Position numbers and translations under genes: made by a program
Origin: an uncultured Acidobacteriota bacterium
Lineage (GTDB): Bacteria > Actinomycetota > Acidimicrobiia > Spongiisociales > ZC4RG35
Length of the DNA stretch: 64,000 nt
Direction: 5' to 3'
Assembly: GCA_963828465.1 (NCBI GenBank)
Contig: CAWHEU010000022.1
Location: 4,577-68,576, forward strand
Shown here: positions 4,036 to 39,201 of the stretch, in pieces
How the letters are laid out: every line of letters starts with the position of its first letter
How positions within the stretch are numbered: position 1 is the stretch's first letter
The notes under the pieces: model-generated
Seen by the model: the letters and a program-made list of their open reading frames with translations, nothing else
The model's database searches: none
What the model was told of the DNA's origin: nothing

Positions 4036-4045
4036 GCCGGTACGG

Positions 4046-8772
<4,727 letters not shown>

Positions 8773-9061: not shown

Positions 9062-10090
9062 ATGGCTCCGGATCGCAACGGACCTCGAACAATCGACATC
9101 CACACCCATGTGATACCGCGCCAACTCGCCGAATCGGCCGAGCGAGGGGAGGCTCGTCACGGCATCATCTTTGGACGCGATACGAACGGACGAATCACGG
9201 GCTCGGTAGGGCCGACGACCTTCTCCATAGCATGGCCGAACATCCTGGAGACAGCCGAGGAGCGGATTCGGGCGATGGACGAGATGCGGGTCGATATGCA
9301 GGTCCTCTCGCTGAGCCCATTGATGCATTGGTACGAGCTCGACGCCAGTGCAGGTGTGCCTATGGCGAAGGAAGCGAATGACGACCTCGCCGAGATGGTT
9401 GCCACCAGCCCCGACCGGTTTGCCGCTCTCGCTTACCTCCCGCTGCAGGACCCAGCTGCAGCCGTCGCCGAGCTGGAGCGGTGCATCAGGGACCACGGGT
9501 TCCTCGGTGTGATGGTGGGGAGCCACGTCAACGGTCTCGACTGGGATGCCGAGGGGCTGTTCCCCGTCCTGGCCGCGGCCCGAGACCTGGGTGCGCTGGT
9601 GTTCGTCCATCCCGCCCATGGCCGGGCCAATTCATTTCTCACCCGTTATCACCTGCGCAATTTGATCGGCAACCCCTTCGAAACCACCGTCGCCATCGCC
9701 AGCCTGATCTTCGGTGGCGTGCTCGACCGGCTCCCCGATCTCGACATCTGCTTTGCACACGGGGGTGGGTACGCCTGCCTAGGCGCTGCTCGACTCGACC
9801 AGGGCCGGCAAGTCCGGGACGAGGCAGACTCATCCAGTCTTCCGTCTGACTATCTCCGGCGCCTCTACTTCGACTCTCTGGTGTTCAGCAATCGCGGACT
9901 GAGCAATCTGATCGAGGTCGTCGGCGCCGACCGGGTCGTCCTGGGCAGCGACTATCCGGCCGACATGGGAGAGCCGCGGCCCGTCGAGTTCATCGAGTCA
10001 CATCCTGAGCTGACCGACGACGAGCGTCGGCTCATCCTCGGTGTGAATATGGAGAGACTGCTGATTCGACCGGTCAGCTCGACGCCCTGA
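9062..10090 (+). CDS. amidohydrolase-2 family metal-dependent hydrolase/decarboxylase (ACMSD-like)
   Basis: IDIHTHVIP near the N-terminus, then ...VFVHPAHG... and FAHGGG. Paralog of the 11264..12274 gene. Confidence 0.85.
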   Translation: MAPDRNGPRTIDIHTHVIPRQLAESAERGEARHGIIFGRDTNGRITGSVGPTTFSIAWPNILETAEERIRAMDEMRVDMQVLSLSPLMHWYELDASAGVPMAKEANDDLAEMVATSPDRFAALAYLPLQDPAAAVAELERCIRDHGFLGVMVGSHVNGLDWDAEGLFPVLAAARDLGALVFVHPAHGRANSFLTRYHLRNLIGNPFETTVAIASLIFGGVLDRLPDLDICFAHGGGYACLGAARLDQGRQVRDEADSSSLPSDYLRRLYFDSLVFSNRGLSNLIEVVGADRVVLGSDYPADMGEPRPVEFIESHPELTDDERRLILGVNMERLLIRPVSSTP

Positions 10091-11111
10091 CAAGGAACGT
10101 GGCCATCTGGTCGCGTCGGATCGGATCGTCCGGGCAGTACCTGGTGTTCTCCGGTGGGTTGCAGCCGAGTGTGATCCCGGCTGCGCCCAACCGGTTGATG
10201 GCATCCTCGAAGATGTGACCGCGGTCGTCACCGAAGTAGTCGGTAGTGGCGGCCGGGAGATCAAAGGCGCGAACCAGGAACGCCGCCATCTCGCCTCGAG
10301 TCATCGTGCGGTCGGGACAGAACCTGGTGTTCTGGGGCGGGTTGCAGCCCTGCGTTATGCCCGTGGTGGCAACCTGGTTGATCGCGTTCTCGAACGTCGA
10401 GGCGCTGTCGTCGTTGAAATGGTCTCCGTCGGCTCGGGGCAAATCCAATGCTCGAGCGATGAACGCAGCCATGGCCCCGCGGGTGACGGAGTCATCAGGG
10501 CAGAACAGCGAGTTGTCGGGTGGGTTGCAGCCGACAGTGATCCCTTTGGCCGCGATGGCCTCGATGTTCGGTTCGTGGAGGTTGCCGTCATCGTCGGCGA
10601 AGGTGCCGTTGTAGCCGGGCGTGCGGGTGGCGCTGGCATCAGTTGGTGGTGGTTCGGCGCTCGTGTCGCCCCTCCCGACGAAGACCACCGTGACATACAG
10701 AGAGCCGCCACTGGTGTCGGTCCCGATCCCGACGTAGTTGTAGTCACCCAGCATGTTCGCTTTATGACCGGGGGAGGCCATGAACGCGTTGTGAAGTGAG
10801 GTTGGGGAGCTCCCCTTCCCGACGTTCTCAGCGATCCCTGACCAGCCGGGGCCGGCTGCGGCGGTCAGCTCTGCTTCACTGGAGTGGTAGAGCTCACCCG
10901 CCGCCGCCATTTCTTCAGCATGGCTTCGGGCGTACGAGCGCAAATCCGCGTCGAGCTGCAGAGCGCCGAGGCCATTCGCGGCCCGGGTCGCATTGATCTT
11001 CGACAGGAATTCTGACTCGGTCTCGCTATCCGCGGCCGCGACAGGGGCAAGGGCGAAAAGAGTCAGCGCGACGAAAACGAGCGACATCATCCAACGACTG
11101 CTTCCGCGCAT
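10074..11111 (-). CDS. secreted CAP (SCP/PR-1, YkwD-like) domain protein with three C-terminal SLH-like tandem repeats
   Basis: Signal peptide MMSLVFVALTLFALAPVAAA. CAP motifs (LRSYARSHAEEMA, GHKANMLGDYNYVGIG). Three ~48-aa repeats GIT(V/Q/L)GCNPPxNxxFCPDxxxTRGxMAAFLxRAxDLP resembling S-layer-homology domains. Start chosen at the ATG at 11111; the ORF extends to 11198. Confidence 0.75.
   Translation of the reverse strand: MRGSSRWMMSLVFVALTLFALAPVAAADSETESEFLSKINATRAANGLGALQLDADLRSYARSHAEEMAAAGELYHSSEAELTAAAGPGWSGIAENVGKGSSPTSLHNAFMASPGHKANMLGDYNYVGIGTDTSGGSLYVTVVFVGRGDTSAEPPPTDASATRTPGYNGTFADDDGNLHEPNIEAIAAKGITVGCNPPDNSLFCPDDSVTRGAMAAFIARALDLPRADGDHFNDDSASTFENAINQVATTGITQGCNPPQNTRFCPDRTMTRGEMAAFLVRAFDLPAATTDYFGDDRGHIFEDAINRLGAAGITLGCNPPENTRYCPDDPIRRDQMATFLVRASS
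10080..10560 (-). repeat. three tandem ~144-bp coding repeats (SLH-like modules) inside the CAP-domain gene
   Basis: The near-identical peptide blocks ...GNLHEPNIEAIAAKGITVGCNPPDNSLFCPDDSVTRGAMAAFIARALDLP / ...FENAINQVATTGITQGCNPPQNTRFCPDRTMTRGEMAAFLVRAFDLP / ...FEDAINRLGAAGITLGCNPPENTRYCPDDPIRRDQMATFLVRA recur three times. Confidence 0.7.
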
Positions 11112-11263
11112 CCGTGAGTAATCGGCGCCGGCGACGATTTTCTTTAGGTGGTGGCCTGCCCTCCTTTCCTGCACACGTTTGTGGTATATACCGATCACGA
11201 GCGGCGGCTCATCGTTGGAGGAGACATGGAGCGACTGCGGGCGGCTTTGACTGGCACCCCGGC
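11112..11263. promoter_or_regulatory. divergent intergenic/promoter region with an AT-rich patch (cgtttgtggtatatacc)
   Basis: Lies between the divergently transcribed CAP/SLH gene and the second amidohydrolase. It is the only AT-rich stretch locally in ~70% GC DNA. Confidence 0.3.
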
Positions 11264-20892: not shown

Positions 20893-22398
20893 ATGACCGG
20901 CGCAATGTCGGCACCGAATCCGACATCGCGTCCCAGTGACGCTGTCTTCATCAGCTACACACACGTAGACAACAAGCCGTTCGGCCCCGAGAAGCAACGT
21001 TGGATATCGCTCCTCGACGAGCATCTGAGCGTTCGACTCGAGCAACTTGCACCAGAGCATCACGTGTCGGTGTGGCGGGACGACAAGCTCCAAGGCAACG
21101 ACGTGTTCTCCGAGTCGCTGAAGGAGCGACTGGGGGAGGTAGCAGTGTTGATTTCGGTGTGTTCGCCCAGGTACTTGGTCTCGGAGTGGTGTCAGAGAGA
21201 ACTCAATGAGTTCGTGCAGGCCCAGGCGAAGCGGGGGCTCGAAGTAGGGACGAAGAGTCGGGTATTCAAGGTGATGAAGACACCGGTGCCTCTAGACGAA
21301 CTCCCTCCTCCGCTCGCTCCGCTGTTGGGGTACGAGTTCTATGAGGTATTGCCGGAAGGCGACCACTTTCGAGAATTCCTTCTCAACCCGAATGAGGAGG
21401 CGCGATGGAAGTTCTACGCTCGAGCGGACGATCTCGCCCAGGACATCGCCGATCTGCTCGACGAGTTGGCCGATGAGGCCGTCCGCCCCGAACCGGTCAC
21501 CTCCAGCACCGTGTATCTAGCTGCGACCACATCGGATGTCTCGGAGGGCCGGGACGACCTCAAGCGGGAACTGCAGCGACGCGGCTTCCGGGTATTTCCC
21601 GATCGCGACCTGCCTTTCGTGGCAGACGACCTGTCAGCGGCCATCACTGGCTGGTTGTCCGAGTCGGACTTCTCGATCCATCTCCTCGGTGCCCGGTACG
21701 GCGCCAGGCCAGAGGGTGACGATCGGTCGATTCCCGACCTGCAACTGGAGCTTGCCCGAGGGTTCGCCAACCGACAGGTTCTGACTCAGCTCATCTGCAT
21801 CAACGACGGGCACGAGGTGGTTGAAGAAGAGCAGGTCGAACTCATCGAGAGAGTCGAGACGACGAACGTCGGCCGAGGAGTCGAAGTGGTGAAGGCTCCG
21901 TTCGATAGGTTCAAGGAACATGTCCTGGACACGATGTCTCGGAGCCCGCTGGCGACAAAAGTGGATACCGGAGCAGAGGGTAGGACCGTCTACCTCGCCT
22001 ACGACCGGGTAGACAGCGAGGCAGCTGAAGCGCTGCAGACCTTGATCGAGGATCGGGGGTACAACGTTTTGTCGCCACTCATGGAGGGATCCGAGTCTGA
22101 AGTGCGTGAAGTCCACGAAACATCGATGGTGCTGAGTGACGCAGTGCTGATCTACTACGGCAAATGCACTGAGCACTGGGTGCGAATGCGGCTCTTCGAT
22201 CTCATGAAAGTGCGCGGGTGGGGCAGAACTGAGCCTTACCTGGCTCAAGCCCTGTGGGTCGGTGCTCCCGACACGCCACACAAGGCGAAGGTGCACATCA
22301 CACAGACTCTGCTCCTGAACGGCATGGCCGATCCCGCGCTGACGGCACTCGAGCCATTCCTCGTACGTCTGGAAGGGCGCGACGCGAGCAACGGATGA
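20893..22398 (+). CDS. TIR-domain protein (N-terminal canonical TIR plus two further degenerate TIR-like modules)
   Basis: DAVFISYTHVDNK…WRDDKLQGNDVF…AVLISVCSPRYLVSEWCQRELNEF is a textbook bacterial TIR. Two later blocks beginning TVYLAATTSD… and RTVYLAYDRVDSEAAEALQ… repeat the fold signature. Stop overlaps the next start (ATGA at 22395). Confidence 0.8.
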   Translation: MTGAMSAPNPTSRPSDAVFISYTHVDNKPFGPEKQRWISLLDEHLSVRLEQLAPEHHVSVWRDDKLQGNDVFSESLKERLGEVAVLISVCSPRYLVSEWCQRELNEFVQAQAKRGLEVGTKSRVFKVMKTPVPLDELPPPLAPLLGYEFYEVLPEGDHFREFLLNPNEEARWKFYARADDLAQDIADLLDELADEAVRPEPVTSSTVYLAATTSDVSEGRDDLKRELQRRGFRVFPDRDLPFVADDLSAAITGWLSESDFSIHLLGARYGARPEGDDRSIPDLQLELARGFANRQVLTQLICINDGHEVVEEEQVELIERVETTNVGRGVEVVKAPFDRFKEHVLDTMSRSPLATKVDTGAEGRTVYLAYDRVDSEAAEALQTLIEDRGYNVLSPLMEGSESEVREVHETSMVLSDAVLIYYGKCTEHWVRMRLFDLMKVRGWGRTEPYLAQALWVGAPDTPHKAKVHITQTLLLNGMADPALTALEPFLVRLEGRDASNG

Positions 22399-25300
22399 CG
22401 GCTACGTCCCCACTATTCAATCCCTTCCCCGGTCTTCGGCCGTTTCGCGAGGACGAGACACCTCTCTTCTTCGGCCGAGATGCCCAGATCGACGAGCTCC
22501 TCGCCGAACTGGGTAGGTCCCGATTCGTAGCAGTCATGGGAGCCTCCGGAAGCGGTAAGTCGTCCCTGGTCACCGCAGGGCTTCTGCCCGCGCTCCAGGG
22601 TGGACTCTCACCGCGATTGGGGGCCAATTGGCGCATCGCCAGCTTGCGCCCCGGGGGCGACCCGGTGCGCAACCTGGCCAGGGCCCTCGTCGAACCCGGC
22701 GTCCTCGATCGAGACGGCTCCGATGAGACCAGAGGCGTCGATCAAACGGAGGCGTTGCTCAGACGAAGCGGTCTTGGTCTCGCCGATCTGGCAAGACGTG
22801 ACGAGAGCCTGAGAGACGGCCGCCTACTGGTCGTTGTCGACCAGTTCGAGGAGTTGTTCCGATTTCAGGACGCTGGGGGCAGGGCACACGACGGCGCGGA
22901 CAATCCGGCATTCGTCCGGCTCCTGATCGAGGCTGTCGCCGACGAATCCAACGTGAGTGTGATCTTGACCATGCGATCCGACTACTTGGGGGATTGTTCC
23001 CAGTTCGACCAGCTGCCCGAGACGATCAACCAAGGGCTCTATCTCGTTCCCCGGCTTACACGCACGCAGCTCCGCGGGGCGATCACCGGTCCAGTCGCCG
23101 TCGGGGGCGGAACGATTGCCCCTCGACTTGTGCAACGGCTCCTGAACGACGCCGGCGCGGATCCCGACCAGCTGCCCGTGTTGCAGCACGCCCTGATGAG
23201 GATCTGGGACCTGTGGACTGGGGACGTGACTGCTCCTGGGCCAATCGACCTCGAGCATTACGAGGCTGCCGGCGGACTCGAGGAGGCGCTCGCCCGGCAT
23301 GCCGACGAGGCATATGACGATCTGACCGACGATCGGAGCCGGCGGATCGCGGAGCTTGCCTTCAAGCGCCTCACTGAGCTCGGAAACGATGGTCGCGAGG
23401 GCCGTCACCCGGCCACGTTGGCCGAGATCGCCTCTGTTGCAGATGCCACGGTCGAAGAAACGCGCGAGGTGATCCGTCACTTCGAGCAGCCGGGAAGATC
23501 CTTCGTCATGGTGTCTGATGACGGAGTCGTCGACATCTCCCACGAAAGCCTCATTCGCCAATGGCCGAGACTCCGTGACTGGGTTGGCGAGGAGGCGGCC
23601 TCCCGAGACACGTATCACCGGCTGGCCGAGTCCGCCGGCCGATGGCGTCGAGGTGAGGCTGCTCTCATGCGAGATCCGGATCTGCAGCTAGCTGTGAACT
23701 GGTGGACGGACAACCAGCCGAGCGGTGCCTGGGCCGAGCGGTACGGCTCGACATTCCAGGACGCAGCCGACTACCTGGATCGGAGCCGCAAAGCCGAGAG
23801 AAGCCGGCGGCTTCTGACGTGGTCCGGTGTCGCAGGGCTGGGCGTCCTGGCAGTCCTGTTCGCGGTGTTGGCTGTATGGGCGATAACGGCAGAACAGGAC
23901 GCGAAGTATCAGGAACGTCTTGCTGTCGGAAGGCAACTCTCCGCGGTCTCGACCGAGCACGGACCGGAGCGTCGGACAACCAGCATCCTCACCGCATTGG
24001 AGGCTCTTCGGACTACCGAGACCGACGGACTGCGTCTCCCGGAGGCCGAGGAGGCACTGCGTGCTGCGATGCACGACCCGCTCGGCATCCGACTCCCCGG
24101 CCAGCCGGGTCAGCTCGGCCATGACGAGGATGTGACGACACTGGGTTTCAGTCCCGACGGGAGATGGTTGGCGACGGGTAGCGCTGACGACACGGTGTTG
24201 CTATGGGATCTGGAGGACACGGAAGGGGACCCGCGTCCGTTGCCCGGTCATGCCGACGACGTGGTGGCGTTGGCGTTCAGCCCCGACGCCCGTTGGTTGG
24301 CCACCGGCAGTCTCGACGGCACCGCCATGTTGTGGGACCTGGAAGATGCGGAAGCCAAGCCCCGGATCCTGGACGGCCATACAGATGAGGTGACATCACT
24401 TGCCTTCAGCCCCGATGGCAGCTGGCTTGCCACCGGGAGCGTCGACGAAACCATCCAGCTCCGTGAATTGGACAACCCGGATCTCGTGGCCCGTGTCCTC
24501 CAGAGCGAGGCGGGATTCATCCTCTGCCTGGCCTTCAGCCCTGACGAGAGGTGGCTGGCGGCCGGCACTGGCACCGGCGTCGGGTATCTGTGGGACATGG
24601 GGAATCCCGGCGGCGACCCCGAGACGCTCAGCGGTCACAACGATGCTGTGGTCGCTGTCGCTTTCAGCCGTGACGGTGCTTCGCTGGCCACCGGGAGCAG
24701 GGATGCGACGATCCGGCTATGGGACCCCGACGTTCCGACCAATCCGTTTGCCAGGCTGGAACAAGGCGACGCGGTGCTCGGCCTGGTGCTCAGCTCCGAC
24801 GGGAGATGGCTAGCCACCGGCGGTGAGGACAACGCCGCCCGTGTTTGGGACCTCCAGCGGTTGAGAGGATCCCCTGACCCGTCACTAGTCCTCGTGCACT
24901 CCGGCCCCGTGGAACGGGTCTCCTTCAGTGCTGACAACCGCTGGCTGGCCACCGGTGGTCCTGGTGACCCGGCTCGGCTCTTCCAGGTCAACGACGCGTC
25001 TCTGCCGCCCGTGGTGCTCGCCGGCCCGGTCACGGCCCTCGGGTTCAGCACCGACGACCGATGGCTGGCGATCGGATCGGATCAGGGCTCGGCTCGCCTT
25101 TGGGGGACGGACCAACTCCCAACACAACCGGCAGTGCTCGATCACGACGACAAGGTCTCAGCGATCGAATTTGGCCCGGACGGTCGTGTGGCCACGGGGA
25201 CCACAGCCAATGTCACGCGTCTGTGGAGTCTCGACGACCCTTCGGCTGAGCCCGAAGTGCTAGCGCAAACGGATTTCGGGTTCGATATGGCACAGGTGGA

Positions 25301-26141
25301 AGCGATCGCGTTCAGACCCGACGGACGTATGTTGGCCACCGGCAGCGGTGACATGCGGGTCCGGTTGTGGACGCTGGATCCTTCAGGGTCCCAACTCGTA
25401 TCCGAGGAGCCTCTCGAGGCTGGAATCAATGATCTGGCCTTTAGTGCGGACGGGGACCGGCTTGCTATCGCGGTGAAGGAAGAGGATGTCTTGCTGTGGG
25501 ATGTGGCGGAGCGGTCGTTCGAGCGTCTCGAGGGTCACAGTGCTGAGGTGCGGAGCGTGGCCTTCAGCCCGAACGGACGTTTGCTGGCCACTGGAGACCT
25601 GGACGGGGAGATCCGGGTCTGGAATCTCGAAGATCTGGAGGTTCCTCCGGAGTCTCTGCGCGCCCATGCCGAGCGGGTGACATCGTTGGCCTTCGACGGA
25701 GAGGGACGTCAGCTCGCGTCCGGGAGCTGGGATCAGACCGTCCAGATCTGGGAGGTCGACACGCGGAGCTACATCACGTTGAACACAGATGGTCGGGTCG
25801 ACAATGTAGCCCTTCGACCCGATGGGAAGTTGATTGCAGTGGCAGCCGATCAACCTCATTTATGGGATCTGACCGCCCCCGACCAGAACGACCCGATCGC
25901 CAATCCTGTCATTCTGCGGGACCACACCAGCGTCGTGAACGCGGTTGCATTCAGCGCGGACGGGAGATGGCTCGGTACCGGGAGTGACGATCACTCCGTT
26001 CGTCTCTGGCTCCAACTGGAGGAATTGGCAGAGCTCGGCTGTGCCAGCGCGGGACGGAACCTGAGTCACGACGAGGTGCAGGAAATCAATCCCGGCGCCA
26101 AGAGCGTTAGCACGTGCGAAGAATGGCCCGAGGGGTCTTAG
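22395..26141 (+). CDS. nSTAND-type P-loop NTPase (NACHT-like) with a central TM helix and ~15 C-terminal WD40 repeats
   Basis: PFPGLRPFREDETPLFFGRDAQIDELL…RFVAVMGASGSGKSSLVTAGLLP carries a Walker A motif. Walker B is LLVVVDQFEE. The hydrophobic segment LLTWSGVAGLGVLAVLFAVLAVWAI is a TM helix. Then ~15 repeats of the type GHxDxVxxLAFSPDGRWLATGSxDxTxxLWDL. Confidence 0.85.
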   Translation: MTATSPLFNPFPGLRPFREDETPLFFGRDAQIDELLAELGRSRFVAVMGASGSGKSSLVTAGLLPALQGGLSPRLGANWRIASLRPGGDPVRNLARALVEPGVLDRDGSDETRGVDQTEALLRRSGLGLADLARRDESLRDGRLLVVVDQFEELFRFQDAGGRAHDGADNPAFVRLLIEAVADESNVSVILTMRSDYLGDCSQFDQLPETINQGLYLVPRLTRTQLRGAITGPVAVGGGTIAPRLVQRLLNDAGADPDQLPVLQHALMRIWDLWTGDVTAPGPIDLEHYEAAGGLEEALARHADEAYDDLTDDRSRRIAELAFKRLTELGNDGREGRHPATLAEIASVADATVEETREVIRHFEQPGRSFVMVSDDGVVDISHESLIRQWPRLRDWVGEEAASRDTYHRLAESAGRWRRGEAALMRDPDLQLAVNWWTDNQPSGAWAERYGSTFQDAADYLDRSRKAERSRRLLTWSGVAGLGVLAVLFAVLAVWAITAEQDAKYQERLAVGRQLSAVSTEHGPERRTTSILTALEALRTTETDGLRLPEAEEALRAAMHDPLGIRLPGQPGQLGHDEDVTTLGFSPDGRWLATGSADDTVLLWDLEDTEGDPRPLPGHADDVVALAFSPDARWLATGSLDGTAMLWDLEDAEAKPRILDGHTDEVTSLAFSPDGSWLATGSVDETIQLRELDNPDLVARVLQSEAGFILCLAFSPDERWLAAGTGTGVGYLWDMGNPGGDPETLSGHNDAVVAVAFSRDGASLATGSRDATIRLWDPDVPTNPFARLEQGDAVLGLVLSSDGRWLATGGEDNAARVWDLQRLRGSPDPSLVLVHSGPVERVSFSADNRWLATGGPGDPARLFQVNDASLPPVVLAGPVTALGFSTDDRWLAIGSDQGSARLWGTDQLPTQPAVLDHDDKVSAIEFGPDGRVATGTTANVTRLWSLDDPSAEPEVLAQTDFGFDMAQVEAIAFRPDGRMLATGSGDMRVRLWTLDPSGSQLVSEEPLEAGINDLAFSADGDRLAIAVKEEDVLLWDVAERSFERLEGHSAEVRSVAFSPNGRLLATGDLDGEIRVWNLEDLEVPPESLRAHAERVTSLAFDGEGRQLASGSWDQTVQIWEVDTRSYITLNTDGRVDNVALRPDGKLIAVAADQPHLWDLTAPDQNDPIANPVILRDHTSVVNAVAFSADGRWLGTGSDDHSVRLWLQLEELAELGCASAGRNLSHDEVQEINPGAKSVSTCEEWPEGS
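24100..26010 (+). repeat. ~15 tandem WD40 repeat units (coding repeats) forming two beta-propellers
   Basis: The recurrent peptide AFSPDGRWLATGS…RLWDL is visible ~15 times, including the degenerate units at ~25142 and ~25860. Confidence 0.8.
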
Positions 26142-26151
26142 GCGCGGTCGC

Positions 26152-27213
26152 TCAGGACGGCGGGGGGGAGATCAGGGTCACTACTGCCAAGAACTCGCCG
26201 TCGTTGTTGGTGACGCCGATGTCGTTGATCCCGAGGTAGAGACGACCGTCGGATTCGACGGTCGTCTGGAACTCACTGCCCACTTCGAACGGGACCCCAT
26301 TCTCTCCGATTTTTCCGATGAGCCCGGCATGATTGGCATCCTCGACCCCGGGCAGATTGGATTCGTGTCCCGGAAGGTTGGGGTCACCATCAGGAGTGAG
26401 CAGCGGGCCGTTCTCGGAGTGCTTTATCCGGCCGCCGGCTTCGATGTCGAGTGTGACTCCCGTGACGACATCGATACCGGAGTCCGTCCACAACACCGTG
26501 CCGGGCACCCGGACAGTCTGAGTTTTCGATGGCTCGGCATCGCATGCCTGAAATCCACCGACAAACTCTCCAAGCGGCGGAGCATCCGGGTCCAGCCGCG
26601 CCTCCTCGAACCACGCATTGAATTCTTGGGTGGGAACGCATATCGCGGGCCCCGGGGCCTGGCCTTTGGTCAGAAACGCGGCCTCGGTATAGGTTCCCTC
26701 CCTTGCCTCGTAGGTCTGGGAAAGACCCTCGGAGGTGAGCTCGATCGACCCCTTCTTGACCACGACACACGTGTTCTCAGTCGGCGGCTGACAAGCCGTG
26801 AACACCGTGGCGGGCTCCAATGCCGTGATGGTCGAGCTCGACGTTTCCAGTGTCAGACGGGTGTCGCTCACTTCGTCGTCGGTGAAGGTGACATGACCGC
26901 CGCCGAGGTACGCCCTCGCTTCCGCCGGTTCCCAGCTCTCGAGTTGGATGGCCGCCTGCCTGGACAACTCGAATCTGCCCAGGTCTCGGATCGTGAGGAG
27001 CCCACTGGCGCCGGGCCCCAACGTGATCTGGTTTCCCAGATCGATCGATTCACCGTCCCCGGTGCCGATCTCGGTTTCGCTCACCGAAATAGGGCCCTTA
27101 TAGACAACCAGATCTGCCTGCATGGGCGGTGTGACTTCATCTCCTCCGCAGGCAGCTAAGGCGAGGGTGATGAGCGTGATAGCCAGTCCCCCCCGAGACT
27201 TCCGTCGCAACAT
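26152..27213 (-). CDS. secreted lipoprotein with a beta-rich C-terminal domain, function unknown
   Basis: MLRRKSRGGLAITLITLALAACGGDE gives a lipobox LAAC. The Gly/Thr/Asp-rich C-terminus looks like a beta-sandwich. The ORF extends to 27258. Confidence 0.65.
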   Translation of the reverse strand: MLRRKSRGGLAITLITLALAACGGDEVTPPMQADLVVYKGPISVSETEIGTGDGESIDLGNQITLGPGASGLLTIRDLGRFELSRQAAIQLESWEPAEARAYLGGGHVTFTDDEVSDTRLTLETSSSTITALEPATVFTACQPPTENTCVVVKKGSIELTSEGLSQTYEAREGTYTEAAFLTKGQAPGPAICVPTQEFNAWFEEARLDPDAPPLGEFVGGFQACDAEPSKTQTVRVPGTVLWTDSGIDVVTGVTLDIEAGGRIKHSENGPLLTPDGDPNLPGHESNLPGVEDANHAGLIGKIGENGVPFEVGSEFQTTVESDGRLYLGINDIGVTNNDGEFLAVVTLISPPPS

Positions 27214-27395
27214 GCTCCCTCCAGTCCGGTCAACTCTATCCGAGGTCTGGTGGCCCAACAGGGCGAGAACCGCATATGGGCCACCATCCCGAAAGGAGCG
27301 GGTTGGAGCGGCGCTGATACGAGGATCGGGCCGCCCACGACGGCCGTCTCCGGTTAGCCCAGCCGCGTAGGCTCGGCCGTCGAAAGGGGGACTCG

Positions 27396-28344
27396 ATGGC
27401 CCATGTGACTTTCGTTCACGGAATCATGAATCAGCCTTCGCCCGCACGTCTGCTCAGGGAGTGGAAGCGGGACTTGGCCGACGGTGGGGACGGAGTGGAT
27501 CTCGATGTGTACGGCGTGACGTCATCGATGGTGTACTGGGCGGACGTCATGTATGCCGCCGCCACCGACGCCGGGGGCAGCCTCTCACGAGTCGATCGAG
27601 TACGAGGGCATCGAGTCGGGCGCCCTCACCGAGGTCGACGAGTCGTACATCGCCGAAGCGAGCGGGGACGAGAAGGACTTCATCGAGTCGATGATCGCCA
27701 ACTACGACCTCGACCATCCCGACGTGCCGGCAGCCGAGGCCGCTCCGGACGCGGGGGCAGAGGCCAGGGTGGCGGCGGCGTCGGCGTTGGAGGCAATACC
27801 TCTGCCGTGGTTCGTCAAGCGGCCGCTGATGCGGCTGCTGTTGCGTGACGTCCACCACTATCTCTTCAACACCAGTCATTCGCCTCGAACCGGGTCCAGC
27901 TACAAGGTCCGCGATGAGGTGAGGAAGCGGTTCGGCGCCGACCTCGGGGCCGTCGACGGTGGGCCCCATGTCGTAGTTGCGCACAGCCTCGGCTCGGTGA
28001 TCGCGTATGACTGTCTCAAACGGGTTGCCGGCACCAAGAAAGTGGACCTGCTGATCACGATCGGCACGCCGCTCGGCATGTCCGAGGTCCAGCACAACTT
28101 GAAGCCAGAGTGGTCGAAGGACGACGGCTACCCCGGAGAACTGCCGCGCTGGGTGAACGTGGTCGATCGTCTCGACCCGGTTTGTGTGGCCGACCCGATC
28201 ATCGCCAACGACTACATGCGGAAGAAGGCAGGCGTGGTGGTCGACGAGGTCGTGTCCAACGGCGGGGTGATGCGCCATCCGTCCGGCAAGTACTTCCGAC
28301 AGGCGGTCGTTCAGGATGCGGTGCGCAATGGATTGGGTGTCTGA
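27396..28344 (+). CDS. alpha/beta-hydrolase fold (lipase/esterase-like, GxSxG = AHSLGS); 1-nt frameshift in a G5 run near 27580
   Basis: N-terminus VTFVHGIMNQP, the nucleophile elbow VVVAHSLGSVIAYDCL and LLITIGTPLG are in two frames. These join at gccGGGGGcagc (27575-27586). RBS aaagggggac before the ATG. Confidence 0.7.
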
Positions 28345-28353
28345 GGGAGCCGG

Positions 28354-29919
28354 ATGTCGTTCTTCGACTCGCCACTTGGTGAGCAGCTCCGCTCCAGCCT
28401 CGATGCGGGGAAACCAGAGGACATCGCCGCCGCGGTAGGGGTGGTCAAGGGGAAGGTGTGGTCGGGGACAGTGCAGCCCGATCAGGTCGACGAGGTCCTC
28501 GCAGAACTGCAGCGACAACGACAGGTTCAGCACGTCATCGACATCGCCGATGCGGCCACCGCGGTCGGCTCGATCACGACGTCGGGCCGTCGCCGCTACT
28601 GCCAGATGCTGATCGAGTCGGGAGCCCTCCATGCCGGCGAGCTCGCCTGCGCAGAGCTTCTCGATCTGGCCGAGGATGCGAAGGAGCGGGGGGAGGCACT
28701 GGGGCTGCTCGGGCGGATCCGCAAGCAGCGTTACGTGACCAGCCGCCGGCCCGAGGATTTGATCGGCGCAATTGCCGCCTATCAGTTCGCATACGCGGGA
28801 GGCGGCGACCCGCTCTGGCATGGCATCAATCTCCTCGCACTCACCACCCGGGCCCATCGTGACGGAATCCTCGTTCCCCAACCGGTCGACACGGACGCTC
28901 TGACACGCACGCTCCTCGACGTAGTCAGGCAGACGGCACCCGAGTTGCAAGAGATCTGGGAGCGCACCACCGAGGTCGAGGCCCTGGTCGCCCTGGGCGA
29001 CAAGGCGTCGGTGGACGAAGCGGTGTCGGTGGCACAGAAACTCGCCAGCAGCAAGAGTGTCCGGCCGTTTGAGCTGGAGAGCCTTCGCCGTCAGCTGGCC
29101 GACATCTGGGAACTCGAGCCGCATCACCCGGTGCTGGTGGCCATCGCAGCGCAGAAGCTCCAACTCGGGGCCAGGGCCCATGTCGAGCTGCCCGATTCCG
29201 CGGGCCAGTTGGAGAAGATCTTCGGGACGGCCCTGCCTGTGGGGTACAAGCACCTGATGAGGGGTCTCGAGTGCGCAGAATCGGTGGGAAAGATCACCGA
29301 CGCATCCGAAGAGCCGTGGGGCACGGGATTCCTCCTACGCGGGAATCTGATCCATCCCGACTTCGGCGATGGACTGGTGCTGGCTACCAACGCCCACGTC
29401 TGTAGTCCAGAGCCCGGAGTGGGCAAGCTGCTGCCGAGCGAGGCGAAGGCTGTCTTCGACGTGACCAAGTCGGTCGATGGGGAGCAACTCGTCCTCACCG
29501 GCTTCGAGTGCCTGTGGAGCTCACCACCCTCGGTATGCGATGTCACCATCCTTCGCTTCACCGGACCCGAGCCGGCGCTCAAAGGCCAGCTCGACGTCGC
29601 CGCGTTGCCCCAGCCAGTGACGGAGGGCGCATATGTCTATGTCATCGGCCATCCGGCGGGGGGTGGGATCAAGTTTTCGATCAGGGGCAACGACCTTCTC
29701 GCCTATGACGCCGACATGTTCAAAGTCCACTACACCGCCCCCACCGAAGGGGGCAGCTCCGGGAGCCCGGTCTTCAACCAGGCATGGCAGCTGATGGCTG
29801 TTCATCACGCTGGAGATTCGAAGATGCACCGACTGGACGACCCTTCCGCTACGTATCAGGCCAACGAGGGGATCACGATCAAGGGGATCAGAGAGGAGTA
29901 CTCCAAGAATGGAAAATGA
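28354..29919 (+). CDS. N-terminal alpha-helical (TPR-like) domain fused to a C-terminal trypsin-like serine protease
   Basis: Catalytic triad context: LATNAHV (His), YDAD (Asp), GGSSGSPVF (Ser) in the C-terminal ~220 aa. The N-terminal ~300 aa is helical. No signal peptide. Confidence 0.8.
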   Translation: MSFFDSPLGEQLRSSLDAGKPEDIAAAVGVVKGKVWSGTVQPDQVDEVLAELQRQRQVQHVIDIADAATAVGSITTSGRRRYCQMLIESGALHAGELACAELLDLAEDAKERGEALGLLGRIRKQRYVTSRRPEDLIGAIAAYQFAYAGGGDPLWHGINLLALTTRAHRDGILVPQPVDTDALTRTLLDVVRQTAPELQEIWERTTEVEALVALGDKASVDEAVSVAQKLASSKSVRPFELESLRRQLADIWELEPHHPVLVAIAAQKLQLGARAHVELPDSAGQLEKIFGTALPVGYKHLMRGLECAESVGKITDASEEPWGTGFLLRGNLIHPDFGDGLVLATNAHVCSPEPGVGKLLPSEAKAVFDVTKSVDGEQLVLTGFECLWSSPPSVCDVTILRFTGPEPALKGQLDVAALPQPVTEGAYVYVIGHPAGGGIKFSIRGNDLLAYDADMFKVHYTAPTEGGSSGSPVFNQAWQLMAVHHAGDSKMHRLDDPSATYQANEGITIKGIREEYSKNGK

Positions 29920-30721
29920 CGCAATCCCTCCGGAGTTCCTGGAGCCCGAGGGCGACGCCGAGCGCCAGGATCCCGACCTCGTCTTCGAGACGACGTCAGC
30001 GACACTACGGGGGCTGTGGAATGACTGGATGTGCAAACGAGGTGACGGGACTTTCGTCGACGTCGAATTCTTCGGCCGCCGGATCGGCGGAGTGCCGACC
30101 CCGGCGGTCGACGCCTATCGGGCGCTCGAGGTAGCCCTGCGCTCCGCCGGTTACAAGCCAGATTCGCGGTGGGCGTACAACTGCAGGCTCATCGAGGGGA
30201 CGGACAAGCCCTCGCTGCACTCGGCCGGGATCGCAGTTGACATCGACCCGGACGAGAACCCGTTCTCGAAGGGTGACCCCTTCGCCGGGAAGATGGGTCC
30301 CGACCATGTCGCCGCGGCGCTGGCCATTCGCAACAGCGCCGGCGCCCGGGTGTGGTCCTGGGGCGGGCATTGGAACAAGCCCGATCGGATGCACTTCCAG
30401 CTCGACAGGGGGCCTGCGGCGGTGGATGTGGATTGGCGAACCGTCCCCGGTGGTGGCCCCGAAAGCGCCAGTTCGGGGTCAATGGACGTGAAGGAGGAAG
30501 AGATGGTTCTGTCCAAGAGCATGAAAGGCCCAGCAGTGGAGCGGTTCCAGCAGTGCCTGCTCGATTGGAATGCCAAGGCGCTGCCGAAGGACGGAGCCGA
30601 TGGTGTTTTTGGGAGCGAGACCGTCGAATGGGTGGGGCGGTTCCAGGAGGCCCTTGGTCTGGAGAAGACCGGAGTGATCGACGGGGTGACCGCGGCCTTG
30701 CTGGTCGCCCACGGGAAGTAA
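29909..30721 (+). CDS. M15 family (VanY/D-Ala-D-Ala carboxypeptidase-like) zinc peptidase with a C-terminal peptidoglycan-binding (PG_binding_1) domain; no signal peptide
   Basis: SLHSAGIAVDID (H…D zinc ligands) and GGHWNKPDRMHFQ (His). C-terminal GPAVERFQQCLLDWN…DGVFGSETVEWVGRFQEALGL matches the PG-binding fold. 11-nt overlap with the upstream stop. Confidence 0.8.
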   Translation: MENDAIPPEFLEPEGDAERQDPDLVFETTSATLRGLWNDWMCKRGDGTFVDVEFFGRRIGGVPTPAVDAYRALEVALRSAGYKPDSRWAYNCRLIEGTDKPSLHSAGIAVDIDPDENPFSKGDPFAGKMGPDHVAAALAIRNSAGARVWSWGGHWNKPDRMHFQLDRGPAAVDVDWRTVPGGGPESASSGSMDVKEEEMVLSKSMKGPAVERFQQCLLDWNAKALPKDGADGVFGSETVEWVGRFQEALGLEKTGVIDGVTAALLVAHGK

Positions 30722-30727
30722 CAAGCC

Positions 30728-32245
30728 ATCAAGGTCTTCCTGAGCTACCGGCGGGACGACACGGCGGGGCGCGCCGGAAGGCTCCACGACGCCCTGGCCT
30801 CGAGTTTCGGCACCCGCAACGTGTTCATGGACGTTTCCGCCATCGCGGTCGGCACCGACTTCGTCGACCAGGTGGAACGAGCGATCTCGACGAGCGACGC
30901 CTCGCTGGTGGTGATGGGGCCGAATTGGCTCGGGGCCACTGACCCCGAAGGCCGTCGGCGGCTCGACGATCCCCAGGACCACGTGAGGTCTGAGGTGCGC
31001 TCCGCGCTGGCCTCACCCAACCCGGTGGTTCCGGTGCTGGTCGGGGATGCATCGTTGCCGACCGAGGACCAACTGCCTGACGATCTGAAAGCCCTGGCGC
31101 GCCGACAAGCCGTGGAATTGCGGGACGAGACATGGTCTGAAGATGTCGAGATGCTGGTCCGGCGTCTCGAAGGCAAGGAGACGGTCCGGGAACCCCGCCG
31201 CTGGATTCTGCTGGCCATTGGCTTGATACTCCTGGGTGGCGTCGGCGCCGCTATCTGGATGGCTCAGGCAGGCGGCGAGGATGAGTTGACCCAATGCTCG
31301 GTGCCGGACGAGACATGGACCACGATCGACGTGGAACCCGGCGCCACGGACGTCGAACAATTGGAGCGGGATCGGGCACTCCGCTACACGGTGGTGAGTA
31401 CGGATTTCAGGGATGAACCCGGGGACGAGTGGTACGTCGTGCTCCATGTGAGGCTGGAGAACGAGTCCACGGACGTGGCGGGAAACGACGACCACACCGG
31501 GTACGGACCGTCGATCTTCGACGCCCTGCACGTCGATGAGATCTCGGTCGGGGGCCCTTACTGCTTTGGCGAGAACAGTGGTGACAGCGATCTCGCCCCG
31601 GGGGAGGCGGCCAACGCACGGGTTGGATTCCTCTCCGTACCTGGACCCCACCGAGGCAAGTCTGATGCTCGAGACCGATGGGCCCCTCTTTATCGAGATC
31701 ACCCCGGGCGCGTGATGCCGACGGTCCTGTTCTCGGGCCACATGGTCGATGCACCAGACCGGCCGTCTCCACGCTTCCCACCCGAGCGTGTTCCCCTGGT
31801 GCGGCGGGCGATCGCGGAAGCCGTCTGGCTCATCGATGACACCGACGCGGAGGCGATCTCGGGACTCGCCTGCGGGGGCGATCTCCTCTTCGCCGAGGAA
31901 TGGCTGAAGACCGGGCGGCCCTTGCACGCCTATCTGCCACGTGAAGAGGCGGATTTTCTCGACGAGTCGGTTCGTTTTGCCGGCTCGGAGTGGGTGGACT
32001 CGTTCCGTGAAGTGACCGCTGATCCGAACCTGGTCCTGATCGGTCCGGACCAAGAGATGCTTGGTTTGAACGAACCGCACACCGCGAACAACCTCCGCAT
32101 GCTCGAAGCTGCGTTGCTGCGGCCCGGCGCCCTCAACGGTCTGTTCCTTTGGGACGGCAAGGGAGGCGACGGTCCGGGAGGCACCGAGCACCTGGCCTCT
32201 GAGGTGGTCGAGCAGGGCGGGAGTGTCACCGTTCTCCGTCCGTAG
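30728..32245 (+). CDS. TIR domain – TM helix – C-terminal Rossmann-like (LOG/SLOG-like) domain protein; non-canonical start (ATC where ATG is expected)
   Basis: (I/M)KVFLSYRRDDTAGRAGRLHDALASSFGTRNVFMDVSAIAVGTDF…ASLVVMGPNWL is a canonical TIR. TM helix RRWILLAIGLILLGGVGAAIWMA. The C-terminus has ISGLACGGDLLFAEEWL … LFLWDGKGGDGPGGTEHL, reminiscent of LOG/SLOG Rossmann domains. The reading frame is open only from the TAA of the upstream gene (30719-30721). The first in-frame ATG (30830) lies inside the TIR domain. Confidence 0.65.
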   Translation: MKVFLSYRRDDTAGRAGRLHDALASSFGTRNVFMDVSAIAVGTDFVDQVERAISTSDASLVVMGPNWLGATDPEGRRRLDDPQDHVRSEVRSALASPNPVVPVLVGDASLPTEDQLPDDLKALARRQAVELRDETWSEDVEMLVRRLEGKETVREPRRWILLAIGLILLGGVGAAIWMAQAGGEDELTQCSVPDETWTTIDVEPGATDVEQLERDRALRYTVVSTDFRDEPGDEWYVVLHVRLENESTDVAGNDDHTGYGPSIFDALHVDEISVGGPYCFGENSGDSDLAPGEAANARVGFLSVPGPHRGKSDARDRWAPLYRDHPGRVMPTVLFSGHMVDAPDRPSPRFPPERVPLVRRAIAEAVWLIDDTDAEAISGLACGGDLLFAEEWLKTGRPLHAYLPREEADFLDESVRFAGSEWVDSFREVTADPNLVLIGPDQEMLGLNEPHTANNLRMLEAALLRPGALNGLFLWDGKGGDGPGGTEHLASEVVEQGGSVTVLRP

Positions 32246-33145: not shown

Positions 33146-36065
33146 CTAGGACCGGTCCTCGATGGCCTCCGGGGGCTCGATCCACTGCAATACCGTTCGG
33201 TAGTCGGCGGCGGCCCCTTCGGCGATCAGGCGGTCCCGCTCCGGTGGAAGGAGACCACCCTCGACCTCTTCACGGAATCGGGCCATTTCGTCCGGACTGG
33301 CCCCGACCCGGTTCCGCTCGACGCTGCCGAGAAACCGGGCGGCTGCAGACAGGTCACCTTCCGCCAGAGCAAGACGGAGGGCCTGTGCCGGGATCCCGGC
33401 CTGGACCTCTCGATCGAAGAGGAGGAGACGGTGGGCGGCCGATGTGAGCTCGACCCTGGCCGCCGCGAGACGTCCTTCATCGATGTGGCTGCGGATCGCA
33501 CGGGCGCCCGATCGGGCGGAGCAGGGCAGATCACCCACTTCGGCCAAGATCCCGGCTGCCTCGGCCAGATCGTCGGTTGAGGCCCCCAGTCCGAGATCCT
33601 GGGTCACCGCCCCGTGGTAGTAGAGGGCATGGCCCAACCCGTGACGGGATCCCAGATCACTCAGGATCTCGATGCTCTGGCGCAAGTTGGCCAGGACCCA
33701 CTCATCGTGACCGGATCCGATGTGGCTGGCCGAGGTCATCATCGATGCCGCGGCCAGATATCCGTCGCCGACCGTCAGCGCCTTCGAGATCGCGGCTTCG
33801 ACATGCTCCCGCCGCTGTTCCGGAGGACCGGCCTGCCCGAAGGCGAGCATGAACTCGATGATCGCCTGATCCCATTCCGGGTCCCACATCGGCGGGTGCC
33901 GGACATTCGCCAGAATCTGACGACCCTCCTCCATCCAGCCGCCCGCGTCCTGATGACCGACGAGGTTGGAATAGGCCATCCCGCGGGTCAGCGTGAGCCA
34001 CCCGACGAGCGCGTCGTCCCCGGCGCTCCGGGCACATTCGAGACCCAGATCTGCATAGTTCACCGCGGCCGGGTCGGTGAGGAAGGTCGCCAGCAGAGAA
34101 GCGGCCAGCCACGCCCTGGCGGCCATGGCGGGCGAGGCTTCGTCGCCATGTGATCGGAGCGCTCCCACCAACAGGTCCCGGCCTTCGACCTGGAGACTGG
34201 ATTGGGCCCAGAACCAGGTCAGATCGAATCCGATGTCGAGGAATCGGTCGATCTCCCCACGGCCGAGCAACGTGGACATGGCAACGCGGATGTTGTCGTT
34301 CTCCAAACAGGAGACTGCGGTTGGCCTGACGCTGGTCGGGACCGCGCAAGCTCGGGGCGATCTGCGCCACTGCGTTGGCGTAGTGAATGGCGTGGAGGAG
34401 CCGTACTTCGTCTTCCTCTCCTTCATCGGCCAGACGGGCCTGTCCGTATTGGCGGATCGGCTCGAGGAGTCGGAAGCGAGAAAAGCGAGCTTGCTGGATA
34501 GGCACCACGAGCGACTTGTCCACCAGCTGATCGAGCAAACCGAAGACATCGGTGGTGTCTCCGACGTTCTCAGCAGCAGGGAGATCGAACCCGCCGGCGA
34601 AGACCGAAAGACGTCGGAAAAGCGCCGACTCTTCCTCGCTGAGCAGGTCGTAGGACCAGCCGATCGTGTTCTCGAGGGTTCGCTGCCGGCGCACCGTCGT
34701 CTTCGAGGCTGCGGTGAGGACCCGGAACGACGTCTCGAGCTGGTCGGCGAGGTCGAGGAGGGTGAGAGTGCGGACCCGTGCCGCGGCCAGCTCGATGCCG
34801 AGAGGAATCCCGTCGAGACGACGGCAGATCCTGGCGATGGCTTCCAGGTCGGCGTGCGAAGGGGCGAGATCCGGCTTCATCCTGGCGGCCCGGTCGAGGA
34901 AGAGACGCACCGACTCCGATCGCGCCAGGTCCGATCCCTCTCCGGGCAGGCCAAGCGACGAGACCCGGAACACGATCTCGGCGGAGGTCCCGAGCGTCTC
35001 CCGTGATGTGGCCAGGATCGACAGGCCGGGGCTGGATCCGAGCATTTCTACCGCGATCGCCGCAGCCTCTTCGAGGAGGTGCTCACAGTTGTCCAGCAGC
35101 AATAGGAGCTTTCTTCGGGCTAGGTGAGCCTTGATCACCTGGATCAGGCCCATCCCGTCGCCGGCGCGCAGGCCCCAGACGTCGGCCACCTCATTCACGA
35201 CCAGGGCCGGATCTGCGATGTCGGCCAGCCCGGCCATCCAAACGCCATCAGGGAAGTCGTCTCCGAGGGCTCCGGCTACTTCCATGGCGAGACGGGTCTT
35301 GCCGGTCCCACCAACCCCGGTGAGGGTTACCAGCCTGTTGGACTGGAGCAGGGCCTTTACTTCCTCGAGGTCCTCGCGCCTCCCTACAAACGAGGTGAGT
35401 TGCGCCGGGAGATGAACCAGGTCGACCGGCTCGGTGCGCAGTGGCTCGGTTACCTCGGGCAGATCGGGATGGAGCAGCTCGAAGAGGCGCTCCGGGCGTT
35501 CCAGGTCCCTGAGAGGATGGACCCCTCGGTCCTGCAACTCCATGGGGGCTTCAACCAATTCTGCGGTCAGCTCAGCAGTGGCTCCCGACACCAGAATTTG
35601 CCCACCGTTCGCCGCTGCCATCACGCGGGCCGCCCTGTTCACATCGGGCCCGAAGTAATCGCCGGCCCGTTCGTACGAAGTGCCGGTATGGACCCCAATC
35701 CTGACGCGGATCGCCGGCCCTTCCCAAGCTTCGTCCAGAAGACCGAGCTGGGCCCGCATTGCGGCGCCAAGCGCGGCCAACGGCGTGGTGAAGGCGGCGG
35801 CAAAAGAATCCCCGGCGCTGGAGAAGACGTACCCATCGAGGTCAGCGATGGCGGATTCGAGAATGCGGTCGTGGGCGATCAGGCTCGCCGCCATGCCGTC
35901 ACGGTCCGCTTCCCAAAGACGGGTCGAACCGGCCACGTCGCTGAACAGGAACGAGACCGTGCCGGTGGGCCTGGAGTCCACCGTCGGAGGGTATCGGGGT
36001 CCCACGCGGGCCGCTAAGACGTCGGGTTCTACCGCGTCGGCAGGAACCAGTAGACGTAGCCGCAC
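33146..36065 (-). CDS. class III adenylate cyclase – NB-ARC/AAA ATPase – TPR STAND-family protein (paralog 1); frameshift near 34306-34328
   Basis: TGTVSFLFSDVAGSTRLWE…GDSFAAAF (cyclase). TLTGVGGTGKTRLA (P-loop). LLLLDNCEHL (Walker B). TPR-like C-terminus. The last ~390 aa are in another frame (33146..34549). Confidence 0.8.
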
Positions 36066-37616: not shown

Positions 37617-39201
37617 CTAGTTCTCGCGTCGGGTGGAGAGAGCTTTTTCCGTCAGGGCGAACACCTTGACCGGTCTCTGTACACCCTTCATCACCAGGTC
37701 TTCGACCGGAACCCCATCGACCCGGTCCTGTACCGCTGCCATGGTCCGCTCAGAGACCAGGACCTGACGCGGCTCGGCAGCCGTGGCAAGTCGAGCCGCC
37801 ACGTTCACGTGGTTTCCCACCACCGTGTAGTCGGTCCTCGTCGACGAACCGATGTTGCCCACCGTGACATATCCGGTGCTGATCCCGACGCCGACGGAGA
37901 GCTCCTCCTCAGAACGCATCCACGTGGCCCGCAGCTCCTCCACCTTGGCCAACATCTCGAATGCGGTAGCCACGGCCCGTTCGGCATGATCCTCGAACGG
38001 GATGGGATCACCGAAGAAAGCAAGCACTCCGTCCCCCAGGTACTTGTCCAGCGTGCCCCCGTTGGAGAAAACGATGTCGGTCATGGCGCTGAAGTACTCG
38101 TTCAGGGCATCGACGAGCTCCTCTGGCTCCATTCGCTCCGCGATCTGTGTGAAACCCCGGATGTCCGAGTAGAGGATCGTCAGATTGCGTCGGACCGAGG
38201 CGAAGGCCACCGGCTCGTCCCCGGCGAGTATCGCGTCCGCCACTTGCGGAGAGACGTATCGCCTCAGCTGCTCGGTCCGCTGCAGCTGGGTGACCTGTTC
38301 TTCGATGGTCTGCTCCAGATTGGCATTGAGCTGGCTCAATCCCTCGTACAAGGTGGAGAGCTGCCTGCTCGTCCGGTTCAGGTTGACCGTCAGCCTCCCG
38401 AACTCGTCACGGTTGGGGACTTCTACTTCCTGGCCGAAGTCGCCGTCGGCGATCCTTCCCAGTGCCAGATCGATCTTTCGCACCGGGCGCACCAGCGACC
38501 ACGACAGGATGGCTCCCATCGCCAGAGCGGTGAGCAGGCTGACCCCGGCGAACGCGGCAACAGTCACCGTGAGGAAGCGGCGATTCCCCCGGAAGTTCTC
38601 GAGCTCGGACGCAATGTCTTCCCTCCAGCGAGCCGATCATCAGGTTGAGATCGTCTTCCAGCTCATGTGAGATCTCGTGCTCGGCCGAGATGTGAACATC
38701 GGAGGCTCGGGTCATGTCGCCGGCCTCGTAGAAAGCCAAGACTTCTTCAGCTGCCTCGGCGTACCGGAGGTCGGTTGCGTCGATTCGGTCGACGATGGCG
38801 ACCAGCTCTTCGTCTGCCACATCTCTGATCGCCTGCATGTCGTTCGTGAAGTTCTCTTTGGCCTGGGCGATCTTGTCGTTCCACGAGTCGACCTGGGTGA
38901 TCAGGGCCATAGCCCGGTAATGGCTCTGCGCTGTCACTGCATAGATGCCCTGCTGGGCGAGCTCCAGCTGATCTTGGAGCTCGATCACCTGGTCCATCTG
39001 CCGGTTCATCGCGTTGATCACGACGATGCTGAAGACCCCCATGGCAAGAAGGAGCAGCGCACTCAACAGGAAGCCGGCGAGCAGCTTGGTGTGGATCGTC
39101 GCCGGCGCACGCGCCACCATGTCGATGAGCGGGCGCACCCAACGGACGGGGAGTGGATCTGGATTTGGTTCCGGCGCGCCCTGATTGACCGCGTCTGTCA
39201 T
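37617..39201 (-). CDS. membrane sensor adenylate/guanylate cyclase with a HAMP domain; frameshift near 38620-38635
   Basis: N-terminal TM, periplasmic helical sensor, second TM, HAMP (DGDFGQEVEVPNRDEFGRL), cyclase (ILYSDIRGFT…LDKYLGDGVLAFFG). The two halves are in different frames. Confidence 0.8.

Follow-up and report, generated by a model that had tools for sequence, protein, structure and literature searches.

Do two overlapping genes, one for a TIR protein and one for an NTPase with WD40 repeats, form a functional unit, and could that unit be an immune receptor? We addressed this question for a 64,000-nt stretch of contig CAWHEU010000022.1 (the window), in which the genes for proteins P0001 and P0002 lie side by side on the plus strand. 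We find that they form a translationally coupled pair that is conserved across phyla and has one natural fused counterpart. From the domains encoded, we consider it somewhat better than an even chance that the pair is a split, membrane-anchored NLR-like immune module with WD40-triggered NADase switching; an antiphage role through abortive infection is likely. The two genes and their junction are as follows.

20893-22398 (+): P0001, 501 residues, TIR-NIR-TIR/nucleoside-2'-deoxyribosyltransferase (NDT)-like effector (open reading frame (ORF); Pfam TIR_2, DUF4062 and TIR; AlphaFold2 model)
22395-26141 (+): P0002, 1248 residues, sensor with nSTAND1, transmembrane (TM) segment and WD40 region (ORF, Pfam, homologs)
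22395-22398 (+): ATGA overlap, translational coupling (P0002 ATG at 22395-22397 over P0001 stop TGA at 22396-22398)

The initial annotation had described a 501-residue TIR protein whose gene runs through an ATGA overlap into that of a partner of ~1,250 residues, and the layout above bears this out. The ORF finder had placed the P0002 start at an upstream GTG (22254). We rejected this candidate in favor of the ATG at 22395 because, numbered from that ATG, Walker A falls at residue ~49 in same-length homologs and because related genomes show the same close coupling of stop and start.

The coupling is not confined to this host. In each of the eight loci checked, which are of acidimicrobial, cyanobacterial, gammaproteobacterial and metagenome origin, including an acidobacterium-like one, the stop of the TIR-type gene overlaps or adjoins the STAND start. 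In the same-genus genome G006 (locus L011, on a 201756-bp contig), the pair is inverted and again joined by an ATGA overlap. Other loci are listed here.

L012, Scytonema hofmannii PCC 7110: CHAT protease + TIR/NIR partner (3926-6001), TGATG junction
L013, Competibacteraceae metagenome-assembled genome: TIR-type gene and STAND gene, TGATG junction
L014, Synechococcus PCC 7336: TIR-type gene and STAND gene, 6-nt gap
L015, GCA_947259095: TIR-type gene and STAND gene, ATGA overlap
L017 and L018, metagenome contigs: TIR-type partner and P0102, a STAND protein lacking the TM segment
L019, Pyrinomonadaceae-like metagenome contig: TIR-type gene and STAND gene

In alignment A2 (6 partners), every partner is built as TIR + NIR + C-terminal TIR-like domain. 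The Scytonema partner carries an additional N-terminal CHAT caspase-like protease domain ahead of TIR-NIR and is thus a predicted protease-plus-NADase effector variant. The homolog lists of P0001 and P0002 share size-matched contigs, pointing likewise to pairing, and the genes that flank distant pairs vary (FGE-sulfatase, Eco57I, M17 peptidase, PIN, Uma2). A search for longer P0001 relatives revealed P0244, a 1291-residue protein on a 3946-bp metagenome contig (L016, present in 2 samples), in which TIR, NIR, nSTAND1, TM segment and WD40 region are fused in this order. This natural fusion gives Rosetta-stone support to the idea that P0001 and P0002 act together. Conserved coupling in 8/8 loci across phyla and the fusion also led us to reject chance adjacency of two unrelated neighbor genes, an explanation whose probability we regard as negligible; judged by its homologs, the TM-conserved, cross-phylum pair stands far above chance.

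The distribution of the pair is patchy. A close full-length ortholog (E <= 1e-150) was found in 1 of 401 genomes of the phylum, the window's own, and G006 alone among 24 same-genus genomes has an ortholog. The pair is accordingly not core housekeeping, and its distribution fits a defense gene. DNA of the locus occurs in soil metagenomes, and no RNA data set was listed among the runs that contain it. The host genome (3.07 Mb, 64% GC, contig of ~604 kb) probably belongs to a monoderm actinobacterium of the Acidimicrobiia, since proteins fully identical to the MMPL transporter and the UspA protein of the window are assigned to an Acidimicrobiia bacterium.

What does the first protein of the pair contribute? 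In P0001, Pfam identified TIR_2 at residues 18-112 (E 4e-15), TIR at 63-118 and DUF4062 at 207-285, and NCBIfam gave a weak match to FxsC_Nterm. We modeled P0001 with AlphaFold2 from a 26-sequence alignment (pLDDT 81.7) and re-aligned its domains to PDB chains by VIA. Foldseek matches of the whole model were weak and mixed because it covers three domains; VIA re-alignment separated these, all of which are α/β.

20932-21489 (+): TIR domain, residues ~14-199 (VIA, hidden Markov model (HMM) alignment, invariant E103)
21499-21963 (+): DUF4062/NIR domain with DRHyd/NDT-like fold, residues ~203-357 (Pfam DUF4062, VIA)
21970-22398 (+): C-terminal TIR/NDT-like domain, residues ~360-501 (VIA)

Residues 14-199 align with plant and bacterial TIRs at VIA Z scores of 11-12.5, with RPP1 as the best match (12.5), followed by RUN1, SNC1, RPV1 and SPARTA TIR; MyD88 is also among the matches. 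E103 (codon at nt 21187-21189), located in the αC motif SEWCQREL, is invariant in 26 homologs (alignment A1) and in the 6 partner proteins from other genomes (alignment A2), and in the HMM alignment it falls on the αC glutamate of the RPS4 and RUN1 TIRs. In TIR NADases, the αC glutamate serves as the catalytic residue. The TIR_2 match and conserved E103 thus support the earlier assignment of P0001 as a TIR NADase-type effector, an assignment that overlooked the DUF4062/NIR domain.

This second domain (residues 203-357) resembles DNPH1, the CMP N-glycosidase BcmB and MilB (VIA Z 12-14). DUF4062 has been described as an NAD+-hydrolyzing immune effector domain and renamed NIR (preprint 10.64898/2026.09.04.749371). 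Swarozyc and TEP1 are treated in a second preprint (10.64898/2026.05.01.722283), Evangelion is a further DUF4062/NIR report, and NIR also occurs in Avs proteins and human TEP1 (10.64898/2026.09.04.749371; 10.64898/2026.05.01.722283). The third domain (residues ~360-501) matches NDTs, SPARTA TIR-APAZ, TIR-STING, AbTir and SARM1 TIR at VIA Z scores of 10-12. P0001 is therefore a TIR + NIR + TIR-like protein made wholly of NAD/nucleotide-processing N-glycosidase folds.

The partner combines an NTPase, a hydrophobic helix and a repeat region:

22422-23654 (+): nSTAND1 P-loop NTPase, residues 10-420 (Pfam PF20703, E 2.8e-102, 343 bits)
22539-22562 (+): Walker A GASGSGKS, residues 49-56 (motif position)
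22827-22853 (+): Walker B-like LVVVDQFEE, residues 145-153 (motif position)
23829-23885 (+): single TM segment, residues 479-497 (hydropathy, homolog conservation, charge bias)
24117-26141 (+): WD40 β-propeller region, residues ~575-1248 (Pfam WD40/β-propeller families, motif spacing)

An nSTAND-type P-loop NTPase had been proposed for the N-terminal domain from its FFGRD (residues 25-29), GASGSGKS and DQFEE motifs, and the Pfam profile search, which matched TIR_2/TIR, nSTAND1 and WD40 in the pair, agrees. NACHT is absent among the best 25 of the 57 Pfam families matched, and the NTPase has no sequence match to solved STANDs. All 120 closest STAND homologs lack an N-terminal effector, with Walker A always at residue ~45-66, which is consistent with an obligate split partner. 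In the C-terminal region, 11 repeats are significant in Pfam and motif spacing indicates ~15-16 WD-like repeats, close to the ~15 counted originally; the β-propeller matches include Beta-prop_TEP1_2nd. This number of repeats would suffice for a double propeller like that of Apaf-1. When residues 530-1248 were modeled with AlphaFold2 from the single sequence, the result was mostly β but of low confidence (pLDDT 52.6) and was not used for a propeller count or fold search.

The TM segment separates the NTPase from the WD40 region. Its core, VAGLGVLAVLFAVLAVWAI, reaches a Kyte-Doolittle window peak of 2.67 and is flanked on the N-terminal side by the K/R-rich stretch DRSRKAERSRR. It is the one hydrophobic stretch of P0002, as the initial annotation had it; the hydropathy profile contains no second TM segment and no signal peptide. 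The segment is kept in 118 of 120 STAND homologs from acidobacteria, cyanobacteria and proteobacteria (32-83% identity). K and R are more frequent in the 20 residues before it than in the 20 after it in 109 of 117 homologs (means, 6.8 vs 3.9). Under the positive-inside rule, this bias predicts that the NTPase is cytoplasmic and that the WD40 region may be extracytoplasmic, the layout of PknB-type receptor kinases. In a monoderm host, an outward WD40 region would be exposed to the cell wall and the surroundings.

These features suggest how the pair might work. Domains, conserved TM segment, coupling, cross-phylum pairing and natural fusion are the observations from which our model starts; trigger, topology, oligomerization, NADase activity and antiphage role are the steps that it proposes. 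P0002 would be held in the cytoplasmic membrane by its single TM anchor, with nSTAND1 inside and two WD40 propellers outside the cytoplasm. The WD40 region would bind a trigger (with the predicted topology, a cue from phage or envelope), and binding would lift autoinhibition of the NTPase, leading to nucleotide exchange and assembly of an oligomeric membrane-bound platform. ATGA coupling would ensure that P0001 is made 1:1 with P0002. The cytoplasmic NTPase domain of P0002 is the probable docking site of P0001, since P0001 lacks a platform-joining domain of its own and TIR-NIR is directly N-terminal to the NTPase in P0244. Clustering would then gather the TIR and NIR/DRHyd domains of P0001, as needed by TIRs in plant TNL resistosomes, and these would cleave NAD+ to ADP-ribose (ADPR) and nicotinamide or to a cyclic ADPR-type signal. 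The loss of NAD+ would arrest the infected or damaged cell, an abortive infection.

A more specific form of the model, which we put forward tentatively, is a transmembrane NLR with a topology like that of Toll-like receptors (TLRs): the outside WD40 region would sense a cue such as phage adsorption/DNA-injection machinery or envelope damage, upon which cytoplasmic nSTAND1 would oligomerize and turn on the TIR-NIR NADase. With this topology, the WD40 region may be extracellular in the monoderm host and periplasmic in diderm hosts.

Several observations weigh against an immune NADase switch of this kind. Human NWD1 and NWD2 have no NADase activity in vitro (10.64898/2026.09.04.749371), and a NIR-STAND-WD40 protein therefore does not have to act as an NADase switch. 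The NIR catalytic glutamate of P0001 could not be located with confidence: in single-sequence and profile alignments to KpSwz (10wc, a solved DUF4062 structure), the TIR domains dominated and the NIR domain stayed unaligned, leaving E274 (in the conserved HLLGARYGARPEG loop) and E286 (in the predicted αC) as unconfirmed candidates. The C-terminal third domain of P0001 is absent from the fused P0244. The topology is a charge-bias prediction; with a helix that fails to cross the membrane, the WD40 region could instead remain in the cytoplasm. PADLOC and NCBIfam searches of the window found no known defense genes and only weak matches, those of the pair (SAVED5 TIR, FxsC_Nterm TIR-like, HEAT-ARM_XIII) all falling below cut-off, and most genes on either side have metabolic functions, so no defense-island context emerged at this locus, even though a downstream block with TPR-S-trypsin and TIR genes is conserved within the genus. 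The PADLOC search matched no named defense system, in line with the original remark that the pair was not recognizable as one.

The position of the WD40 region is the point on which the nearest alternative differs. The same two-protein NADase switch could operate with a cytoplasmic sensor if the hydrophobic helix merely anchors P0002 or is buried and the WD40 region folds back on the NTPase, as in Apaf-1, to sense an intracellular (phage) protein. All characterized bacterial STAND immune receptors sense phage proteins in the cytoplasm (PMC13581612), and WD40 autoinhibition of the Apaf-1 type requires contact between propeller and NTPase. A 470-residue cytoplasmic N-terminal domain before a single TM segment would be unusual, and homolog P0102 retains its TIR partner without a TM segment (L017/L018). 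However, a strongly hydrophobic segment of 19-25 residues, present in 118/120 homologs and positive-inside in 109/117, behaves like a spanning TM segment, and we consider a cytoplasmic sensor rather doubtful. Alternatively, the pair could be a non-antiphage switch for cell death, stress or development, in which a membrane-bound STAND responds to a self cue or to damage of the envelope by causing NAD+ depletion or the release of an NAD-derived messenger. Such a function would suit a window in which no defense-island context emerged and has parallels in eukaryotes, where NWD1 and NWD2 are non-immune and inactive as NADases in vitro (10.64898/2026.09.04.749371) and non-immune roles have been proposed for TEP1 in vaults and NWD1 in purinosomes. 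Many STAND conflict systems are also tied to multicellular bacteria and cell-death programs (Aravind and colleagues, PMC7159879). Yet a patchy distribution combined with varied TIR/CHAT effectors is typical of defense modules, and NIR and TIR domains turn up repeatedly as antiphage effectors; we judge a purely non-antiphage switch unlikely.

Less probable still is a Thoeris-like mechanism, in which TIR/NIR would make a cyclic ADPR-type messenger that activates a separate effector encoded downstream, either a TPR-S trypsin-like protease or a second TIR protein. In type IV Thoeris, protease effectors can be switched on by TIR-made cyclic ADPR isomers (10.1101/2024.10.24.620036), TPR-S has been proposed as a nucleotide-signal sensor, and G006 keeps both the TPR-S + Trypsin_2 protein and the second TIR_2 protein beside the pair. 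In distant homologs, however, the neighbors vary and no shared second effector accompanies the pair.

How does the pair relate to known systems? The closest domain set is found in human and animal NWD1, NWD2, TEP1 and NPHP3, which have NIR, STAND NTPase and WD40 modules in common with it; in NWD1, NWD2 and TEP1, NIR (DUF4062) stands in the place that the CARD has in Apaf-1 (10.64898/2026.05.01.722283). Whereas the NWD/TEP1 modules reside in one chain, here they are divided between two coupled proteins, in the window and in 8 other loci. The prokaryotic pair further differs in having an NTPase that Pfam assigns to nSTAND1 rather than to NACHT, a TM anchor, a full TIR and a third TIR/NDT-like domain. 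The fused bacterial P0244 reproduces the single-chain NIR-STAND-WD40 order of NWD1/NWD2/TEP1. The initial annotation was right in recognizing the logic of NLR-like and Avs-like systems (TIR effector, STAND switch, repeat sensor), which the domains and the conserved coupled unit support, but it overlooked the kinship with fused NWD1/NWD2/TEP1 and the bacterial fusion.

Among bacterial systems, Avs2 with a NIR effector (PsAvs2) and other Avs/bNACHT proteins likewise combine a STAND switch with a TIR/NIR NAD+-degrading effector in an abortive-infection-type logic, and Avs2 activates its own NIR effector (10.64898/2026.09.04.749371). In contrast to P0002 and its 120 closest homologs, Avs proteins carry an N-terminally fused effector, and their cytoplasmic TPR/helical sensor binds phage terminase or portal, whereas the pair has a WD40 sensor predicted to face outward. 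Thoeris (ThsB TIR with ThsA or other effectors; types I-XI) shares TIR-based NAD+-processing immunity but lacks a STAND; the ThsB_TIR Pfam match of P0001 (E 0.088) is below cut-off, and neither the flanks in the window nor those in G006 contain a SIR2/SLOG/Macro effector gene next to the pair. VMAP/iSTAND ternary conflict systems comprise a MoxR AAA+ ATPase and a vWA protein (Kaur et al. 2020), and the pair and its flanks contain no MoxR or vWA genes.

Plant TNL resistosomes (RPP1, Roq1) cluster TIR NADases by ligand-triggered oligomerization of the NTPase, as we propose for the pair, and the P0001 TIR is structurally closest to the RPP1/RUN1/SNC1 TIRs in VIA; the Apaf-1 apoptosome, like P0002, uses a WD40 double propeller as sensor. 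The bacterial pair differs from both by nSTAND1 in place of NB-ARC, a split effector and a membrane anchor, and from TNLs also by WD40 in place of leucine-rich repeats (LRRs). TLRs consist of an extracellular LRR domain, a TM segment and a cytoplasmic TIR, an arrangement that, given the predicted topology, the pair would resemble by analogy, not receptor homology. In TLRs, the TIR is part of the receptor chain and serves as an adaptor, whereas the pair has a separate TIR/NIR effector with an NTPase switch in between.

Because the split effector, nSTAND1, WD40 region and TM segment do not fit the defining organizations of Avs, Thoeris, TNL or NWD/TEP1, we do not file the pair under any of these; its predicted components place it as a variant within the known STAND-NADase immune kind. 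As the initial annotation had suspected, we found no named system with the split, TM-anchored two-gene form in the literature searched, although undescribed supplementary data could exist. Nor did our literature searches yield any account of a bacterial STAND protein that is anchored in the membrane and has its sensor outside the cytoplasm, though this does not prove that there is none.

Bacteria, plants and animals all possess STAND/NLR receptors that set off NAD+-based cell death. The pair would be a widespread bacterial version in which the TIR + NIR effector is separate from the sensor yet coupled to it in translation. If the predicted topology is true, it would be the first bacterial NLR to sense outside the cytoplasm, converting extracellular detection to intracellular NAD+ signaling in a TLR-like manner. 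For the NIR-NACHT-WD40 architecture found in human NWD1/NWD2/TEP1, the pair also provides a model in bacteria that lends itself to experiment, and start-stop coupling makes the two proteins easy to express together.

The neighborhood of the pair contains further genes of interest. A 368-residue lipoprotein (lipobox LAAC, no Pfam domain) is encoded at 26152-27258 (-), between the pair and a conserved downstream block, and is absent in G006. The block itself, at 27553-32245 (+), is also present in G006 (L011, 14848-19757) and encodes an alpha/beta hydrolase, a TPR-S + Trypsin_2 protease in which the catalytic His and GxSGSP motifs are present, an M15 D-Ala-D-Ala carboxypeptidase with a PG-binding domain and a second TIR_2 protein unrelated to P0001. 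This block is possibly a separate TIR-signal-to-protease module. No tRNA flanks the pair. At L017 and L018, a SLATT_3/DUF4231 gene (~2617-3234 and 1422-2039, respectively) lies two genes upstream of the TIR-NIR partner; SLATT_3/DUF4231 is a predicted nucleotide-signal-responsive membrane effector and may be an extra effector in some variants.

Farther away in the window, class III adenylyl/guanylyl cyclases are encoded at 33702-36065 (-), 43707-46928 (+), 37617-38567 (-), 39842-40987 (-) and 4272-5327 (-). Two of them are cyclase-STAND signaling proteins, in which the cyclase is joined to an NB-ARC-like STAND NTPase that has TPR/MalT repeats; one carries HAMP and one Ad_Cy_reg. The protein encoded at 10074-11198 (-) combines a CAP domain with an S-layer homology (SLH) domain.

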